Assembly: GCA_043719295.1 (NCBI GenBank)
Contig: JAYSUD010000005.1
Span: 98,077-162,076 of the forward strand
Reading direction: 5' to 3'
Source of the DNA: a bacterium
Lineage (GTDB): Bacteria > Patescibacteriota > Minisyncoccia > Phycocordibacterales > UBA918
Length of the DNA: 64,000 nucleotides
In this document: piece by piece, positions 1,376-55,574 of the stretch
Numbering within the stretch: the first letter of the stretch is position 1
How the letters are laid out: each line of letters begins with the position of its first letter
Notes under the pieces: generated by a model
Database searches by the model: none
Told to the model about the DNA's origin: nothing
The model's input: only the letters and a program-made list of their open reading frames with translations
Made by a program: the position numbers and the translations under genes

Positions 1376-1688
1376 CGCGAGAGACGGGACTCGAACCCGC
1401 AACCTCTGCCGTGCACTGAATTCATTATTTTCATAATGGCGTGGACTATATCTTTACCATGAGTCTTTCGACTGTTAGGTACCCCGGTATCTAGTCTCTA
1501 CGGCGCCCCCATACTATGTGTTTTTGTATATGGGGTTCCCTCGGTATTCGCATATCTAGTAGTGCTTATTGGGCACTATTTCAAACGACTTAGCCTTCAC
1601 CGATATCCCGGAGAGTTTCAATCCTAACTTTCGAAAGGAAAGCTGCACGTCTACAGGGCAGCGCTCTAACCAATTGAGCTACTCCCGC
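1376..1688 (-). tRNA. tRNA-Asp(GUC) interrupted by a ~239-nt group I-like intron in the anticodon loop
   Basis: 5' half (1653-1688; acceptor GCGGGAG, D-arm GCTC-AATTGGTTA-GAGC, anticodon stem CTGCC) and 3' half (1376-1413; GGCAG, variable AGGTT, T-arm GCGGG-TTCGAGT-CCCGT, acceptor CTCTCGC, discriminator G) are both canonical; splicing at 35/36 gives loop CTGTCAC and a T-arm identical to bacterial tRNA-Asp; 5' exon ends in U and intron ends in G; alternative junction 33/34 would give UGC. Confidence 0.6.
1414..1652 (-). other. putative group I intron (no internal ORF) inside tRNA-Asp
   Basis: 239-nt intervening sequence between canonical tRNA halves; boundaries U|...G| fit group I rules; size matches known tRNA group I introns. 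Confidence 0.45.
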
Positions 1689-2343
1689 AGTTCTTTATAA
1701 ACTCCTCAAAGACGACTTTTTTACGTCGTAAATGGAGTTTGTGAGGAACAGTATACATGATTTTATAAAGTTTCAAAGCGTCTTTAGTTGAGAGGATGAG
1801 TCGTGAATAATTAGCCATCTTTGGCGTATATATTCCCCCACCAATAATACCTCTTGATTGCAACACCATTCGCAAGGATAACAGATACTCGAGTGAACCC
1901 GAGGTGAATATCGATTGCAGTACTTTTGTTGGACTTTTTCGTTGCCTGTTAATAATTCCACTCCAGACATTACCGTCTCCATCAAAATAACCGCGCACAA
2001 AATCTCCAAAAAAATATTCTGGGACCTGCGGCAATTGCATACGCTTAGTTTTATTTGGGAATAAACCAATCTCACCTAAATCATAGAACCACTCCTTACT
2101 TCCAATTTGAATTCTGTATACACATCCAGTTAAGGACTTACGTCCTGAAAGTTTGTGATCAGACTGAAAACACTTTCTCATTGCAACTAATATATCTTTA
2201 TCTGCTGAATATACTGCGACAAAATGAGTGCCTCGCTTTGATTTGACTATATTCCCATCAGCATACATAAACCCTAAAATATAGGCCATGTCGGAAGACC
2301 AAATTTTAAAGAAATCTTTGTTGTATGTTTTAGATATTGGCAT
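1666..2343 (-). CDS. LAGLIDADG homing endonuclease (two-motif, single-chain)
   Basis: two LAGLIDADG-type motifs (LGFMYADGNI and RGYFDGDGNV); its 3' end overlaps tRNA-Asp exon 1 by 23 nt. Confidence 0.8.
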   Translation of the reverse strand: MPISKTYNKDFFKIWSSDMAYILGFMYADGNIVKSKRGTHFVAVYSADKDILVAMRKCFQSDHKLSGRKSLTGCVYRIQIGSKEWFYDLGEIGLFPNKTKRMQLPQVPEYFFGDFVRGYFDGDGNVWSGIINRQRKSPTKVLQSIFTSGSLEYLLSLRMVLQSRGIIGGGIYTPKMANYSRLILSTKDALKLYKIMYTVPHKLHLRRKKVVFEEFIKNCGSSSIG

Positions 2344-3600: not shown

Positions 3601-4272
3601 TTATTTACTTGCTTGTATGAGACCTAAAATTTTGTACCTCAATGTTGTACCACGAGCTACTCGTAATGCCAACACGCCGTAATAGGAATCATGATTTTCA
3701 TATATCTTTTTCGGACGGCCTTTGAGGAAAATAACTTTGTTAAATTGCTCTTTCGGGATTGATAGAAAATTAGACCAGAAAGTCATAATGACGCATTCAC
3801 GAGGTTTATGTATCTCTGATACATAAATATATGGTCGAAAATCAGACCTTTGCACCCCTAGTTGCTCAAACCAATTCCGAGCAAAAAGTATAACTGAAGG
3901 GTCAGAATTAACAAGAGCAGTACCACTCCCTCCTGCTTTAACACCCTCACCCCAGTACAACCCAATACCTAACATCAGTCTGTCACGTTTCGTCATTTTT
4001 CCAATTATAGCCTTTGCTTTATGCTCTTGTTCTAGGATATTTTCAATCTTTTTACGTCTATTTGATTCTGCTCCCATCATTCTACCTCTGTTTCCAGCTT
4101 TAATTTGTTGCAGTGTAAGTATTTCTCTTTGCGAATCAGAAAGCACTAAATCTCTACACCAAATACTCACTGAACTACTGGATACCCTAAGTCTCTTAGC
4201 TATCGCTTTAATACTCAGCCCATCAGTACGTAGATTTCTTGCAAGTAGTTTTTCTACACTTTTAGCCATCAA
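3601..4272 (-). CDS. HTH + degenerate LAGLIDADG-like (LYWGEG) homing-endonuclease-related protein
   Basis: N-terminal HTH (LSIKAIAKRLRVSSSSVSIW); C-terminal GIGLYWGEGvK...TALVNSD...ILFARNWFEQLGV parallels the I-CreI-type LAGLIDADG alpha-beta-beta-alpha core; stop codon abuts the tRNA-Met 5' end with a 1-nt gap; paralog at 46912-47569. Confidence 0.5.
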   Translation of the reverse strand: MMAKSVEKLLARNLRTDGLSIKAIAKRLRVSSSSVSIWCRDLVLSDSQREILTLQQIKAGNRGRMMGAESNRRKKIENILEQEHKAKAIIGKMTKRDRLMLGIGLYWGEGVKAGGSGTALVNSDPSVILFARNWFEQLGVQRSDFRPYIYVSEIHKPRECVIMTFWSNFLSIPKEQFNKVIFLKGRPKKIYENHDSYYGVLALRVARGTTLRYKILGLIQASK

Positions 4273-5995: not shown

Positions 5996-6066
5996 AGCGG
6001 GGTAGAGGAGTGGTACCTCGGGAGGCTCATAACCTCCAGACCCCGGTTCGAGTCCGGGCCCCGCAA
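5996..6066 (+). tRNA. tRNA-Met(CAU), initiator-like
   Basis: anticodon loop CTCATAA; 1:72 mismatch (A:A) and A11:U24, both initiator hallmarks; T-arm CCCGG-TTCGAGT-CCGGG. Confidence 0.65.
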
Positions 6067-6075
6067 CAAACATAT

Positions 6076-30762: not shown

Positions 30763-30875
30763 CTTCGAATCCCTCCGCACGTGACATTTAGTCACGTGCT
30801 CATCTTCCGCGAACAAAATATGCGCCCTTGTGGGGCGCTATTTTGAATCGCGGAAGATGAGGGATTCGAACCCTC
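30763..30875. repeat. extended inverted repeat: inverted copy of the 3'-terminal ~25 nt of tRNA-Ser(ACU) (30763-30775 + 30799-30811) facing the tRNA 3' end (30849-30875), with two nested hairpins
   Basis: reverse-complement comparison of the flanks. Confidence 0.7.
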
Positions 30876-30937
30876 GAAGGATTTAACTCCTTGGCAGTTT
30901 AGTAAACTGCTGCTTTCAGCCACTCAGCCAATCTTCC
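30851..30937 (-). tRNA. type II (Ser-like) tRNA with anticodon ACU (loop TTACTAA)
   Basis: 87 nt; acceptor GGAAGAT/ATCTTCC, 3-bp D-stem GCT/AGC, long variable arm (AAGGA-GTTAAA-TCCTT), T-arm GAGGG-TTCGAAT-CCCTC, discriminator G; anticodon stem GCAGT/ACTGC. Confidence 0.65.
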
Positions 30938-31151
30938 AATATATTCGCTTCGCTCAAATTGTAACCCTACGGGAGGATTAACTTCGTGTCTGCCACGCAG
31001 ATGAATCTGCGGTAAAATATGAAGAAGTTCATATTGAACCCACGGAGCCAATCTTCCACAGGCGGGGGTATTATAGACTGAAATTGGTTTGTTTCAAAAT
31101 ACATAGTTCGGTGCGATAATGGTGTCCTGAATTCCTTATCTCTACTTATAT

Positions 31152-35046: not shown

Positions 35047-35142
35047 GCTTCGAATCCCTCCTTTTCTCGCAAATGCAACAAAACCCAAACAAAGCTTTGG
35101 CTTTGTTTGGGTTTTGGCATTTGCGGAAAAGGAGGGATTCGA
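35047..35142. repeat. ~45-bp near-perfect hairpin whose outer arms are the tRNA-Ser(GCU) 3' end (35125-35142) and its inverted copy (35047-35064)
   Basis: reverse-complement comparison; inner arms cgcaaatgcaacaaaacccaaacaaagc / gctttgtttgggttttggcatttgcg. Confidence 0.7.
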
Positions 35143-35209
35143 ACCCTCGAGGGTTATTCACCCTACTTTCTTAGCAAGAAAGCACAATCGGCCTCTCTGA
35201 CACTTTTCC
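35124..35209 (-). tRNA. tRNA-Ser(GCU), type II
   Basis: 86 nt; acceptor GGAAAAG/CTTTTCC, anticodon stem CTTTC/GAAAG loop TTGCTAA, variable arm AGGGT-GAATA-ACCCT, T-arm GAGGG-TTCGAAT-CCCTC; D-arm irregular in hand fold. Confidence 0.6.
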
Positions 35210-35226
35210 TTATTCGACATAATACG

Positions 35227-36216
35227 TTATTTCAAGTACCTTTTCAAATGCTTTGGATTATGAGTTCCAATTTCTTTCATGTACCGAGCAACATCGTGGA
35301 TTGCATCAATACGAACATTGGTTCCACTACATGTGGCAGTACTCCCGAATCGATGCAGAATAAATAACACCTCGTTTCGAAGCGGTTTTGAAGCGGAAGA
35401 AAAACATAATTTCTTATATTGATACTCCTTACCTCCTACTTTATATTTATGGAGATACACTGAACCATCTGTATCCATTAATCCTCGTAGACATGCCGAG
35501 GAATATTCTTCATTTTCTAAAATCCATGCAGGGATATGTACCTGCTGTTTCACTTTGTTACCTATAACGAGTCCTAGGGATACAAGAAAGATGACTGCCT
35601 TTTTCCGTGCCAAAACAATACTATGTGCATGTGCATCTTTACGAACATACACACTTGGCATCACCCCAAATAATTTTTGCATCAATGATTTAACAAACAA
35701 CCCATATTCAAAATCATCAACAGAATGTAAAGTGACCGACACCTGATACTGTGTCAGTCCTCCATCGCCAAGCATGATGCCTATAAATTCAGCAAGTTTA
35801 TTATTTCTCACTGGTATACAAATATTTTTTGTAAAAAAATCTGCTATTTCAGTTTTTCCGCCATTATCAAACCATCTACGCCAACTCTCTTTGCGCACTG
35901 TTTCATTCACAGGAACTCTGCCATACTTTTTCATTACTGCGGAAGAACCTGCTAAACCAGCCCGACTAGTATGCTCATAGCGATTAATTTGACAGACTCT
36001 TGGGACAAGCATATTGGCTTCTTTTGCGAGCAAAACTAGACTCTCATATGGCATCATAGTTTTACCTAACTTCCATCCACGAATTGTACGGTCCGAACAA
36101 TTGCAAATTTTTGCCATACGACCTACTGATACTTTATCGCATGCTTTTGACATCCACAGGGCTTGTTTTTCTATCGAAGCAAACTTTGCTTTTTTATCTA
36201 CTAAAGAATCTATCAT
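35227..36216 (-). CDS. LAGLIDADG homing endonuclease (two-motif) with N-terminal HTH
   Basis: motifs EFIGIMLGDGGL and LRGLMDTDGSV; HTH near the N-terminus; directly upstream of tRNA-Ser(GCU). Confidence 0.8.
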   Translation of the reverse strand: MIDSLVDKKAKFASIEKQALWMSKACDKVSVGRMAKICNCSDRTIRGWKLGKTMMPYESLVLLAKEANMLVPRVCQINRYEHTSRAGLAGSSAVMKKYGRVPVNETVRKESWRRWFDNGGKTEIADFFTKNICIPVRNNKLAEFIGIMLGDGGLTQYQVSVTLHSVDDFEYGLFVKSLMQKLFGVMPSVYVRKDAHAHSIVLARKKAVIFLVSLGLVIGNKVKQQVHIPAWILENEEYSSACLRGLMDTDGSVYLHKYKVGGKEYQYKKLCFSSASKPLRNEVLFILHRFGSTATCSGTNVRIDAIHDVARYMKEIGTHNPKHLKRYLK

Positions 36217-36255
36217 GTTTCCATTATACTACATAGAATGCTATAATATTATTTT

Positions 36256-46688: not shown

Positions 46689-46762
46689 CCGCCCTTAGCT
46701 CAGTTGGTTAGAGCATGGAGCTTATACCTCCAGGGTCCCACGTTCGAGTCGTGGAGGGCGGA
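46689..46762 (+). tRNA. tRNA-Ile(UAU)
   Basis: acceptor CCGCCCT/AGGGCGG, D-arm GCTC-AGTTGGTTA-GAGC, anticodon stem TGGAG/CTCCA loop CTTATAC, T-arm CCACG-TTCGAGT-CGTGG, discriminator A. Confidence 0.7.
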
Positions 46763-46911
46763 CAAAAATTGAATTCATATACAAAAATGGTCATTGGTTC
46801 GCACCACAAGAGTATTTCCGTTTTCTAATTCCTTTCAGTCATAAAAAAACTAGGTCAGTCCAAGAGGTCAGACACAGTATATCTCTTTTATATTTTGAAA
46901 AAAATCCTAGT

Positions 46912-47569
46912 CTAGGAATAGATACTTCGTAAGTATCGGATGCCTTCTATCACATATTCGTACATATCTCTATCGTGATATGAAACAACGCACGTACCGT
47001 AATTAAACATTCCTTTGTACGTCCTTGCTTCCGCAGAAGTATTTTTTACATACGTTTTATTAAAGTTTTGCATTGGTATACTTAGATGCTTACACCAAAA
47101 TTCTTTAAGCTCATCTTCATTTTGATTAGTATACGTATGTAGTTTAACTTTAAGTTCGTCCCTTAAGACACCCATATTTTCAAGCCACATGACAAAACAT
47201 TTTACAACAGCAGGATCTGAGTTAGTTAATGACGTCGTATATTCGGCTGATTTTGTACCTTCATCCCAATAAAGGTAAAAGCCTGCAATAAATTCAAGAT
47301 TTCTACTACAGGAAATGTCATGTGATACTTTTTTAAATACAACACTCCTCCTATCATCTTTTTTCTTCTGCATAGTCATTCGATATTTCTCAATTCGAAT
47401 CTCAGAATTCGCTCGTAATTCATTAATACGCTTTTTTTGAAAGTGGCATGTCACTTAACCATCCGCTAAGGGTACTTTTACTGATTCCTATTTCGGTTTT
47501 TATTTGAGAATAGCTCATCCCTTTCTTTCTTAAGGTAATTGCTTTTAGTTTATTTTTCGAACGTACCAT
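46912..47569 (-). pseudogene. frameshifted paralog of the HTH + degenerate LAGLIDADG-like protein
   Basis: HTH part (47423-47569) and LYWDEG C-terminal part (46912-47454) overlap by 32 nt in different frames; collinear with the intact 3601-4272 gene. Confidence 0.5.
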
Positions 47570-54887: not shown

Positions 54888-55280
54888 GGGGATGCTAGGC
54901 ATCGACGGTTAGTCCCTGCTGTTGTGTGCAGTGTCAAAAGAGCATGTGGATTTGTAAAAATACATGCAACACTTACGTGCTAAGAATAACGTAGTAAGTC
55001 CATACTTCTCGAAGTTGGATCTCGTACCCGCTCTCGCGTAACCCGCGACGGCCGGTCGACATTGTTTCTCTTGAGGTTTCATAGAGAGAATTGCAGTGTA
55101 ATAAAAATGAAACTTGAAAGTAGTACCCCTTCCTAGTACTACTTAGACCTTCTTAGGAATCGAGAGTGTACGATTTTGTTTATCTTATACGTCCACCCTT
55201 TAAATCAAAAGAAATACTACACACTGTAGACGCGCGATAGCAACCTAATTCGGACGTGGATTCAATTTCCACCATCTCCA
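54888..55280 (+). ncRNA. ssrA: tmRNA (ssrA), one-piece
   Basis: 5' GGGGATGCTAGGCATCGACGG (conserved TCGACGG); 3' tRNA-like end GTGGA-TTCAATT-TCCAC + CATCTCC + A; G3:U70 alanine determinant; candidate tag ORF (A)KNNVVSPYFSKLDLVPALA* at 54979-55041. Confidence 0.8.
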
Positions 55281-55574
55281 CAATTTAAAAATCTGCACAC
55301 ATTTTTCGTGGGCGATTTTTATTTGTGGAGATGGTGAACAGGCAAACTGCTTTGCCTGTGTGAAATTGAATCAAGCGGAAGCATGTTGCCTTGCAACAGC
55401 TGAGCTCGGGGAGGAAGTTCTTAGTAATTTAGGAACGAAGTGAACTTAAGTACTTAGAAACTTGACCCTTCAATTTCCACTATCTCCACCGACACATAAA
55501 ATCACTCAGATCCATGAGTGGTTTTATGTTTTATTTGGCACGGTGACCCACGGAAGTATGTCATACTTATATAT

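Follow-up and report, generated by a model that had tools for sequence, protein, structure and literature searches.

Homing endonuclease genes (HEGs) that lie outside introns, between transfer RNA (tRNA) genes, are known from phages T4 and T5. The GIY-YIG enzyme SegB of T4 was reportedly described by Brok-Volchanskaya et al. in 2008 as an agent of "intronless homing", in which the tRNA region is inherited preferentially through cleavage and co-conversion. Insertion beside tRNA genes is also seen in elements of other kinds: yeast Ty3 and Dictyostelium TRE insert upstream of tRNA genes, Ty3 within a few nucleotides (nt) of the tRNA 5' end, and integrases insert at tRNA 3' ends. SegB and its tRNA context are also treated in PMC13096335 and PMC2988022. 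Collaborative, or trans, homing has been described for F-CphI with the psbA intron of cyanophage S-PM2 and for T4 mobE with the defunct I-TevIII/nrdB intron (PMC2790892). In Patescibacteria, group I introns have been reported between positions 35 and 36 of tRNA-Asp and tRNA-Asn (Nakagawa et al., mSystems 2026; PMC13011429); that study sought HEGs inside the introns only, inferred limited mobility and left a flanking free-standing LAGLIDADG gene unmentioned, and a passage in it cites LAGLIDADG HEGs in ribosomal RNA introns of Patescibacteria. Here we describe four open reading frames (ORFs), ORF1 to ORF4, which encode helix-turn-helix (HTH) proteins of LAGLIDADG or LAGLIDADG-like type and adjoin four of the six tRNA genes in a 64,000-nt stretch of a Patescibacteria genome (GenBank assembly GCA_043719295.1, contig JAYSUD010000005.1, positions 98,077 to 162,076 of the forward strand), hereafter the window.

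Full-text literature searches found no description of a free-standing HEG docked in this way at the 5' side of a tRNA gene. The closest systems in logic are T4 SegB, the enzymes of the T5 tRNA cluster and collaborative homing, and the closest in fold are the LAGLIDADG enzymes of archaeal introns and inteins. Like SegB and the HNH enzymes of the T5 tRNA region, the genes described here stand outside introns and between tRNA genes. Unlike those phage enzymes, they encode LAGLIDADG proteins with an N-terminal HTH domain in cellular Patescibacteria chromosomes, they sit precisely at the 5' boundary of a single tRNA gene, with 3' overlap or promoter sharing, and they have radiated into tRNA-type-specific subfamilies, each present in hundreds of species. 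Like Ty3, TRE and the integrases, they exploit tRNA genes as conserved places in a compact genome where insertion does no harm, whereas those elements depend on tethering by RNA polymerase III factors or on site-specific recombination rather than on the double-strand break and gene conversion presumed here. Our data suggest that selfish genes use tRNA genes as landing sites, and we consider it likely that the four ORFs are free-standing HEGs belonging to three related HTH and LAGLIDADG families, each specialised on the 5' boundary of specific Patescibacteria tRNA genes. The ORFs and their tRNA partners are as follows.

1376-1688, minus strand: tRNA-Asp(GUC), split by an intron (exons read from the sequence, intron from Rfam)
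1422-1669, minus strand: Rfam match to the group I intron family RF00028 (51.1 bits)
1666-2343, minus strand: ORF1, 225 amino acids (aa), two-motif LAGLIDADG endonuclease gene (Pfam LAGLIDADG_3)
3526/7-3599, minus strand: tRNA-Met(CAU), probably elongator, partner of ORF2 (ARAGORN/Rfam)
3601-4269, minus strand: ORF2, 222 aa, HTH, helical linker and a single LAGLIDADG-like domain (GLYWGEG)
35123-35209, minus strand: tRNA-Ser(GCU), partner and presumed homing target of ORF3 (ARAGORN/Rfam)
35227-36216, minus strand: ORF3, 329 aa, N-terminal HTH and two LAGLIDADG domains (Pfam LAGLIDADG_3, AlphaFold2 (AF2)/Foldseek)
46689-46763, plus strand: tRNA-Ile(UAU), convergent with ORF4 across a 148-nt spacer (ARAGORN/Rfam)
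46912-47569, minus strand: ORF4, frameshifted pseudogene of the tRNA-Ile(UAU) subfamily, motif LYWDEG

ARAGORN and Rfam found five tRNA genes, one transfer-messenger RNA (tmRNA) and one group I intron in the window, and the sixth tRNA gene, the split tRNA-Asp(GUC), was found by reading the minus strand. The initial annotation had reported that four of six tRNA genes sit next to an endonuclease-type gene; the gene calls, the exon reading and the ORF positions all agree with this, and its coordinates for the split tRNA-Asp proved exact. It had also described ORF1 as a two-motif gene overlapping the 5' exon of tRNA-Asp, and we found an overlap of 23 nt. For ORF2 the proposed 1-nt gap to tRNA-Met stands, and the start is most likely the ATG at 4269 instead of position 4272; for ORF3 the adjacency to tRNA-Ser(GCU) likewise stands, with a gap of 17 nt in place of 18. 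Positions within 150 nt of a tRNA gene make up just 3.9% of the window, and the probability that four ORF ends would fall there by chance is about 2e-6. All four ORFs are intergenic, outside any intron or intein, and ORF1 lies upstream of the tRNA-Asp exon and not in its 239-nt intron. Loci from related genomes and metagenomes (numbered with the prefix L) were compared with the window, and these cross-genome data remove doubt that the association between the ORFs and tRNA genes is real.

ORF3 matched Pfam LAGLIDADG_3 (PF14528) with 35.8 bits (gathering cutoff 22.5), and the catalytic residues D151 and D250 of its motifs FIGIMLGDGG and LRGLMDTDGS are invariant in 25 homologues. The AF2 model (predicted local distance difference test, pLDDT, 90) has a two-domain LAGLIDADG fold with a tandem alpha-beta-beta-alpha-beta-beta-alpha core. 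Its best Foldseek match was the archaeal enzyme I-Tsp061I (E=2.8e-11; template-modelling (TM) score 0.74 on the target), and intein endonucleases, I-AniI, I-OnuI, I-DmoI and the transcription factor WhiA were among the further matches. A profile search of the PDB returned VMA intein endonucleases and I-Tsp061I, and NCBIfam gave just sub-threshold matches, to intein-containing proteins. I-Tsp061I, I-DmoI and the VMA inteins, the best structural and sequence matches, share both fold and catalytic motifs with ORF3. Unlike these intron and intein enzymes, the genes described here are not embedded in an intron or intein, they have an extra N-terminal domain (in ORF3 about 130 aa, an HTH plus linker helices), and their partner is the flank of a tRNA gene. 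ORF3 can be read as a free-standing homing endonuclease gene whose product is predicted to be a nuclease. Across the four ORFs, the LAGLIDADG assignment of the initial annotation was borne out in Pfam for ORF1 and ORF3, whereas ORF2 and the N-terminal piece of ORF4 matched an HTH domain only.

The linkage of ORF3 to tRNA-Ser(GCU) is conserved. More than 1200 homologues of 329-333 aa share 40-85% identity, and relatives were confirmed in at least 528 species genomes, from which we sampled 80 loci on one-genome-per-species contigs. In 75 of these 80 loci a tRNA-Ser(GCU) gene lies on the same strand, mostly 20-32 nt 3' of the ORF3 family member; three of the five exceptions are contig ends and another, L054, holds a tRNA remnant. 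The two genes also share regulatory DNA. The conserved C-terminus of ORF3 reads NPKHLKRY, and its His-Leu-Lys/Arg codons double as the -35 box (TTGAAA or TTGAGA) of a promoter-like site for tRNA-Ser, whose -10 box is in the spacer; this embedded layout was found in 41 of 76 loci, compared to 0.4% of shuffled sequences. The locus in the window contains the following features in addition to the two genes.

35212-36254, minus strand: ORF3 cassette of about 1 kb, missing in L162 (blastn of the window against L162)
35219-35247, minus strand: promoter-like site of tRNA-Ser, TTGAAA-17-TATTAT (promoter scan)
35079-35116, minus strand: intrinsic terminator hairpin with a 17-bp stem, directly 3' of tRNA-Ser(GCU)
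35050-35078: inverted copy of the tRNA-Ser 3' end, beyond the terminator

A set of loci independent of ORF3 was drawn by means of the neighbouring malic enzyme gene, and it revealed a presence/absence polymorphism. L162, the closest relative (malic enzyme 94% identical at the aa level), matches the window colinearly, with 82-84% identity between the two DNA sequences (blastn), and lacks ORF3, carrying about 218 nt of unrelated DNA in place of the cassette. Homology stops at the start codon of the major facilitator superfamily (MFS) gene and is picked up again at 35211, which leaves 2 nt to the 5' end of tRNA-Ser(GCU); judged by eye, the left edge of the cassette is some 10-15 nt ahead of the ATG of ORF3. 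A second relative, L164 (malic enzyme 82%), likewise has tRNA-Ser(GCU) without ORF3, and a maximum-sensitivity six-frame hmmsearch found no relic of ORF3 in the gap of either locus. Three further empty tRNA-Ser(GCU) sites occur in loci picked through ORF2. Furthermore, similarity among ORF3 copies does not follow that of their hosts: identity to the window copy is 67% in L002 (malic enzyme 73%) and 48% in L166 (malic enzyme 85%), and the L166 copy is no closer than those of distant hosts (malic enzyme 60%), in which ORF3 is 50% identical to that of the window. Damaged copies were found in L079, where the gene is split, and in L054, where a degenerate C-terminus stands beside the tRNA remnant. 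Because ORF3 is patchy among relatives and its history is unlike that of its host, we see it as behaving like a homing element with a constant landing site. A role as a universal Paceibacteria housekeeping gene was considered and rejected, given the alleles without it in the closest relatives and the discordance between HEG and host.

Several properties of ORF3 would fit a different reading, in which it is a LAGLIDADG/HTH protein domesticated as a host factor (a regulator of transcription specific to a tRNA gene, or a processing or maintenance factor) and no longer mobile; this could extend to the other ORFs, with ORF3 the foremost candidate. ORF3 is conserved to the same extent as RecG and IF2, nearly always intact and present in a single copy per locus, it holds the tRNA-Ser promoter within its 3' codons in the 41 loci mentioned above, and its upstream synteny (PilMNO-ComF, IF2-RbfA, RecG, malic enzyme) is kept within clades. 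WhiA, a LAGLIDADG and HTH transcription factor and one of the structural matches, offers a precedent. WhiA has lost the catalytic residues, carries its HTH at the C-terminus and is vertically inherited. ORF3, by contrast, has invariant acidic residues and an N-terminal HTH, and it is missing from close relatives, of which L162 and L164 do without it, with no relic and with a normal tRNA-Ser(GCU). The discordance with host similarity and the classic gain, decay and loss seen in the sister families also speak against domestication, and a genome of about 1 Mb would hardly be expected to keep a separate regulator for each tRNA. Taken together, these findings make domestication unlikely, although it is the best placed of the alternatives that we weighed.

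The homing reading is reinforced by ORF1 and tRNA-Asp. ORF1 matched LAGLIDADG_3 in two stretches with 35.9 bits (gathering cutoff 22.5), and its motifs LGFMYADGN and VRGYFDGDGN are kept in 10 relatives. Its last 23 nt, stop codon included (1666-1688), lie within exon 1 of tRNA-Asp (1653-1688), which is followed by the intron (1414-1652) and exon 2 (1376-1413). Relatives of ORF1 abut or overlap tRNA-Asp in nine more loci (L095, L123, L127, L140, L088, L131/132, L118 and L090). The spacing between tRNA-Met and tRNA-Asp is 41-54 nt in about 19 loci without the ORF, and 730-1700 nt in others that have an ORF1 gene between the two; relics consisting of the last codons of ORF1 precede tRNA-Asp in L108/110, L124 and L125. 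In L027 an ORF1-type gene lies between tRNA-Cys and tRNA-Leu(UAA), and the same tRNA genes are adjacent to each other in L021, L022 and L081. Alleles lacking the endonuclease gene, which the initial annotation had named as the comparison to make, were therefore found at tRNA-Ser(GCU), tRNA-Asp and tRNA-Cys/tRNA-Leu loci, and the insertion boundary was the tRNA 5' end. Intact, degenerate and lost copies, as in a homing cycle, were all observed, and the discordance between ORF3 and host identity is evidence of horizontal transfer.

The intron of tRNA-Asp (239 nt, group I, without an ORF, between positions 35 and 36) belongs to exactly the class described in PMC13011429, and it co-occurs with ORF1. 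All four intron-containing tRNA-Asp alleles (window, L131/132, L118, L090) have ORF1 upstream, compared to 5 of 35 intron-less alleles (Fisher p=0.0015), a comparison in which alleles with very different introns were possibly missed in loci not scanned with Rfam. This resembles F-CphI and mobE, where a free-standing HEG stands beside a gene with an ORF-less group I intron and the two co-occur; by analogy, the tRNA-Asp intron could interrupt the target and so give immunity, and ORF1 probably mobilises the intron or is protected by it, as in collaborative homing. The differences are that the host gene here is a bacterial tRNA with the intron at 35/36, and that in 5 loci ORF1 stands beside a tRNA-Asp without an intron, which makes the intron optional. 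These alleles argue against the intron being the sole source of immunity.

ORF1- and ORF2-family genes often have no stop codon of their own and end inside the tRNA, and in many cases the stop is the universal U8-A9-G10 of the tRNA read as TAG, giving C-termini such as ...GVAQVVRA or ...CGSSS. Processing of an ORF1- or ORF2-tRNA co-transcript by RNase P would leave a non-stop mRNA; a tmRNA gene is present in the window. In a separate observation, L095, which has ORF1, and L093, which does not, are 79% identical in DNA through ORF2 to the 3' end of tRNA-Met and carry different tRNA-Asp types downstream. This difference hints that the tRNA gene may be exchanged along with the HEG.

Such exchange is central to a second alternative, according to which HEG and tRNA move as one cassette and the imported tRNA, which replaces the resident copy, is cargo or an immunity allele and not the target. 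Co-conversion of flanking markers is expected in intronless homing, as with the T4 Seg enzymes, and the contrast between L095 and L093 in tRNA-Asp type would fit. An anticodon stem of CTTTC/GAAAG is common to the intact alleles of the window, L002 and L010, which carry ORF3, and other stems are found in L162, L164 and L079, a pattern that is anecdotal at this sample size. Against a cassette, the tRNA-Ser genes of the window and L162 are identical but for four substitutions, two compensatory pairs in the anticodon stem, and tRNA-Asp of "type B" occurs both with and without ORF1; across clades, no consistent difference between tRNA-Ser(GCU) alleles with and without ORF3 was found that would explain immunity. 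We hold this alternative to be decidedly improbable as it stands, and it is a refinement of the homing model rather than an alternative to it.

ORF2 and ORF4 belong to a superfamily that we call LYWGEG, for its central motif. Relatives of ORF2 (222-237 aa) have an HTH, a helical linker and the motif G-L-Y-W-G-E-G followed by NSDP, and the acidic E/D of this motif is retained in 24 of 24 relatives; in Pfam, ORF2 matched at its N-terminal HTH only, and WhiA was among its structural matches. The description of ORF4 in the initial annotation as a frameshifted paralogue near tRNA-Ile(UAU) was correct: the frameshift lies in a run of A near 47430, and ORF4 is 35% identical to ORF2. Its closest relative is the copy in L147 (52% identity), where tRNA-Ile is likewise antisense at the 3' end of the ORF. 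A profile search with LYWGEG returned 377 representative clusters at E<=1e-30 and 3165 at E<=1e-10. Within a sample of 80 metagenome loci with 81 ORFs, 73 of the 81 have a tRNA gene between -45 and +170 nt of the ORF 3' end, and about half overlap the tRNA and stop inside it. Orthologues of ORF2 have tRNA-Met within a few nt downstream, and distant paralogues have tRNA-Ile(UAU), Lys(CUU), His or Gly(UCC). The superfamily also shows decay and vacancy, as an internal deletion has removed the LYWGEG core from ORF2 of L138 and none of five tRNA-Ile(UAU) genes in ORF3-selected loci is occupied by an ORF4-type gene; loci selected independently of ORF2 hold no tRNA-Met genes.

Some LYWGEG proteins of about 530-560 aa (P0479, P0481, P0494) have two or three matched stretches and resemble tandem fusions of the single-domain unit, an architecture that parallels the known evolution of LAGLIDADG enzymes from dimer to monomer. 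Group I introns in initiator tRNA-fMet were read from the sequence in L096 (1348-1620) and L135 (5699-5885), and the host gene of a further intron in L102 (645-843) is presumably tRNA-fMet as well. A LYWGEG-family ORF is immediately divergent from or adjacent to each of these three introns, and those of L096 and L102, which share 52% identity, form a further subfamily. The tRNA-Ile(UAU) gene of the window, like that of L147, is inverted relative to the usual order of HEG followed by tRNA.

The pairing of families with tRNA types is specific. ORF3 goes with Ser(GCU), ORF1 with Asp (rarely with Leu(UAA)), ORF2 with Met and the ORF4 type with Ile(UAU), and sister groups go with Lys(CUU), His and Gly(UCC). 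Within the ORF2 superfamily, ORFs that are closest in sequence adjoin the same type of tRNA in 64 of 67 cases, and no such ORF was found beside the 21 Arg(GCG), 14 Cys and 9 Glu tRNA genes of the same loci. The initial annotation had proposed free-standing HEGs that use conserved tRNA genes as homing sites, with an occurrence of the homologues away from tRNA genes as the observation that would count against it; the proportions given above for ORF3 and the ORF2 superfamily show homologues locked to tRNA genes instead of scattered, in support of that proposal. On a third alternative, tRNA flanks are just permissive safe havens or recombination hot spots in which HEGs accumulate passively as integrases and islands do. 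The recombinase and GIY-YIG genes and att-like repeats on the 3' side of tRNA-Ser(GCU), described below, would suit that view. We hold it to be very improbable, since it fails to predict the one-to-one match between subfamily and tRNA type, the fixed orientation with a 0-30-nt or overlapping junction at the tRNA 5' end, or the absence beside Arg(GCG), Cys and Glu tRNA genes.

On the reading that we favour, in which the ORFs are tRNA-targeting HEGs, the enzyme would recognise DNA at or inside the conserved tRNA gene of a chromosome without the HEG and make a double-strand break there. Repair from an HEG-bearing copy gained by DNA uptake would then copy the HEG to a position directly 5' of the tRNA. 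In this process tRNA genes could provide a portable target together with homology arms, given their conservation between species and, in tRNA clusters, their frequent position on either side of the HEG. After insertion the HEG would become woven into expression of the tRNA, as suggested by ORF3, which carries the tRNA-Ser -35 box, and by the many ORF1- and ORF2-family genes that stop inside their tRNAs.

A number of points weigh against this reading. An attempt to infer the target sequence gave no result, and cleavage is inferred only. Self-immunity is a difficulty, as an intact tRNA adjoins the HEG. Nor is the DNA upstream of the tRNA conserved among empty alleles, which would leave a site centred on the junction with a single conserved half. 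For ORF2 the LAGLIDADG fold is putative: Foldseek gave no match at E<0.1, and the sole LAGLIDADG signal in Pfam, in ten distant LYWGEG members that otherwise matched HTH, was one sub-threshold match to LAGLIDADG_3. With respect to ORF3, mean pairwise identity is about 48%, like that of RecG and IF2 of the same loci, damage was seen in just 2 of 80 copies, which is unusually good preservation for a selfish gene, and identity correlates moderately with that of neighbouring genes (Spearman 0.4-0.7); its high conservation therefore leaves room for some vertical inheritance or host-level selection. The unbiased sample of tRNA-Ser(GCU) occupancy is tiny (5 empty, 1-2 occupied), and the loci are metagenome-assembled, so mis-binning is possible.

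More tentatively, the observations may be joined into a single picture, which as a whole we regard as possible but doubtful. It would comprise a phylum-wide, tRNA-type-specific partnership in which the HEG is more than a parasite and is part of the tRNA expression unit, and essential tRNA alleles are maintained or exchanged in a gene-drive-like manner. ORF3 would supply the tRNA promoter, the stop codon of ORF1- and ORF2-family genes would be the U8-A9-G10 of the tRNA, and cleavage of the co-transcript by RNase P would create a non-stop mRNA and thereby throttle the nuclease. The enzymes would promote gene conversion both of tRNA genes and of tRNA introns that lack an ORF, in Patescibacteria populations that import foreign DNA, and the system would be built in part on the single-domain LYWGEG proteins as a previously unrecognised branch of LAGLIDADG enzymes.

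These findings point to a new niche for HEGs, the exact 5' boundary of specific tRNA genes, occupied in cellular chromosomes by large conserved families. They would also provide a way in which the abundant ORF-less group I introns of Patescibacteria tRNA genes could remain mobile, whereas the published survey inferred that their mobility is low. The LYWGEG family is at present annotated only as "HTH domain protein". The families together could serve as a resource of many natural meganuclease scaffolds whose targets, being tRNA genes, are probably short, conserved and predictable. In addition, tRNA flanks are flagged as hot spots that fragment Patescibacteria assemblies.

The window has a guanine plus cytosine (GC) content of about 41%, and its genes include GatA, LigA, RecQ, RecG, FtsH and a type II/IV secretion ATPase. 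Its proteins have homologues in metagenome-assembled genomes of Paceibacteria/Parcubacteria, and the nearest genome locus is in a "Ca. Kaiserbacteria" bin. Because of its gene content the window is bacterial chromosome; a phage origin was rejected on this ground and because a megablast search of 10 kb against phage records gave no match. Its remaining RNA genes are listed here.

5996-6067, plus strand: tRNA-fMet (ARAGORN/Rfam)
30850-30937, minus strand: tRNA-Ser(ACU) (ARAGORN/Rfam)
54888-55281: tmRNA

The tRNA-Ser(ACU) gene encodes a second AGY-type tRNA-Ser, with the loop uuACUaa and A at position 34. The same gene is found in L003, L010, L022, L054, L064, L142 and L154; it is conserved across several Patescibacteria lineages, often beside or divergent from tRNA-Ser(GCU). 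To our knowledge, bacterial tRNAs other than tRNA-Arg(ACG) seldom have A34. Part of the tRNA-Ser(ACU) 5' end (GGAAGATTGGCTCCGTGGGTTCAA) is repeated at about 31040-31063 on the minus strand, some 110 nt upstream of the gene, and may be the footprint of an earlier insertion or deletion at its 5' boundary. Both tRNA-Ser genes of the window are followed by a terminator hairpin and then an inverted copy of the tRNA 3' end (35050-35122 and 30790-30849). In L162 (3885-4060), part of the tRNA 3' end recurs as a direct repeat some 150 nt downstream and resembles an attachment-site (att) scar. Large serine recombinase genes are located antisense and directly 3' of tRNA-Ser(GCU) in 11 loci, and 9 loci have small GIY-YIG genes there. 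Because of these genes and the att-like repeats, we consider the 3' side of tRNA-Ser(GCU) to be a separate integration hot spot. The presence of tRNA-Ile(UAU) in the window and in many related loci implies that AUA is decoded without a lysidine-modified tRNA-Ile2. Finally, RecG of L167 (3508-6321) is 937 aa long, compared to about 730-780 aa elsewhere, and contains a PDDEXK_3 match; it may represent another nuclease insertion in a housekeeping gene.

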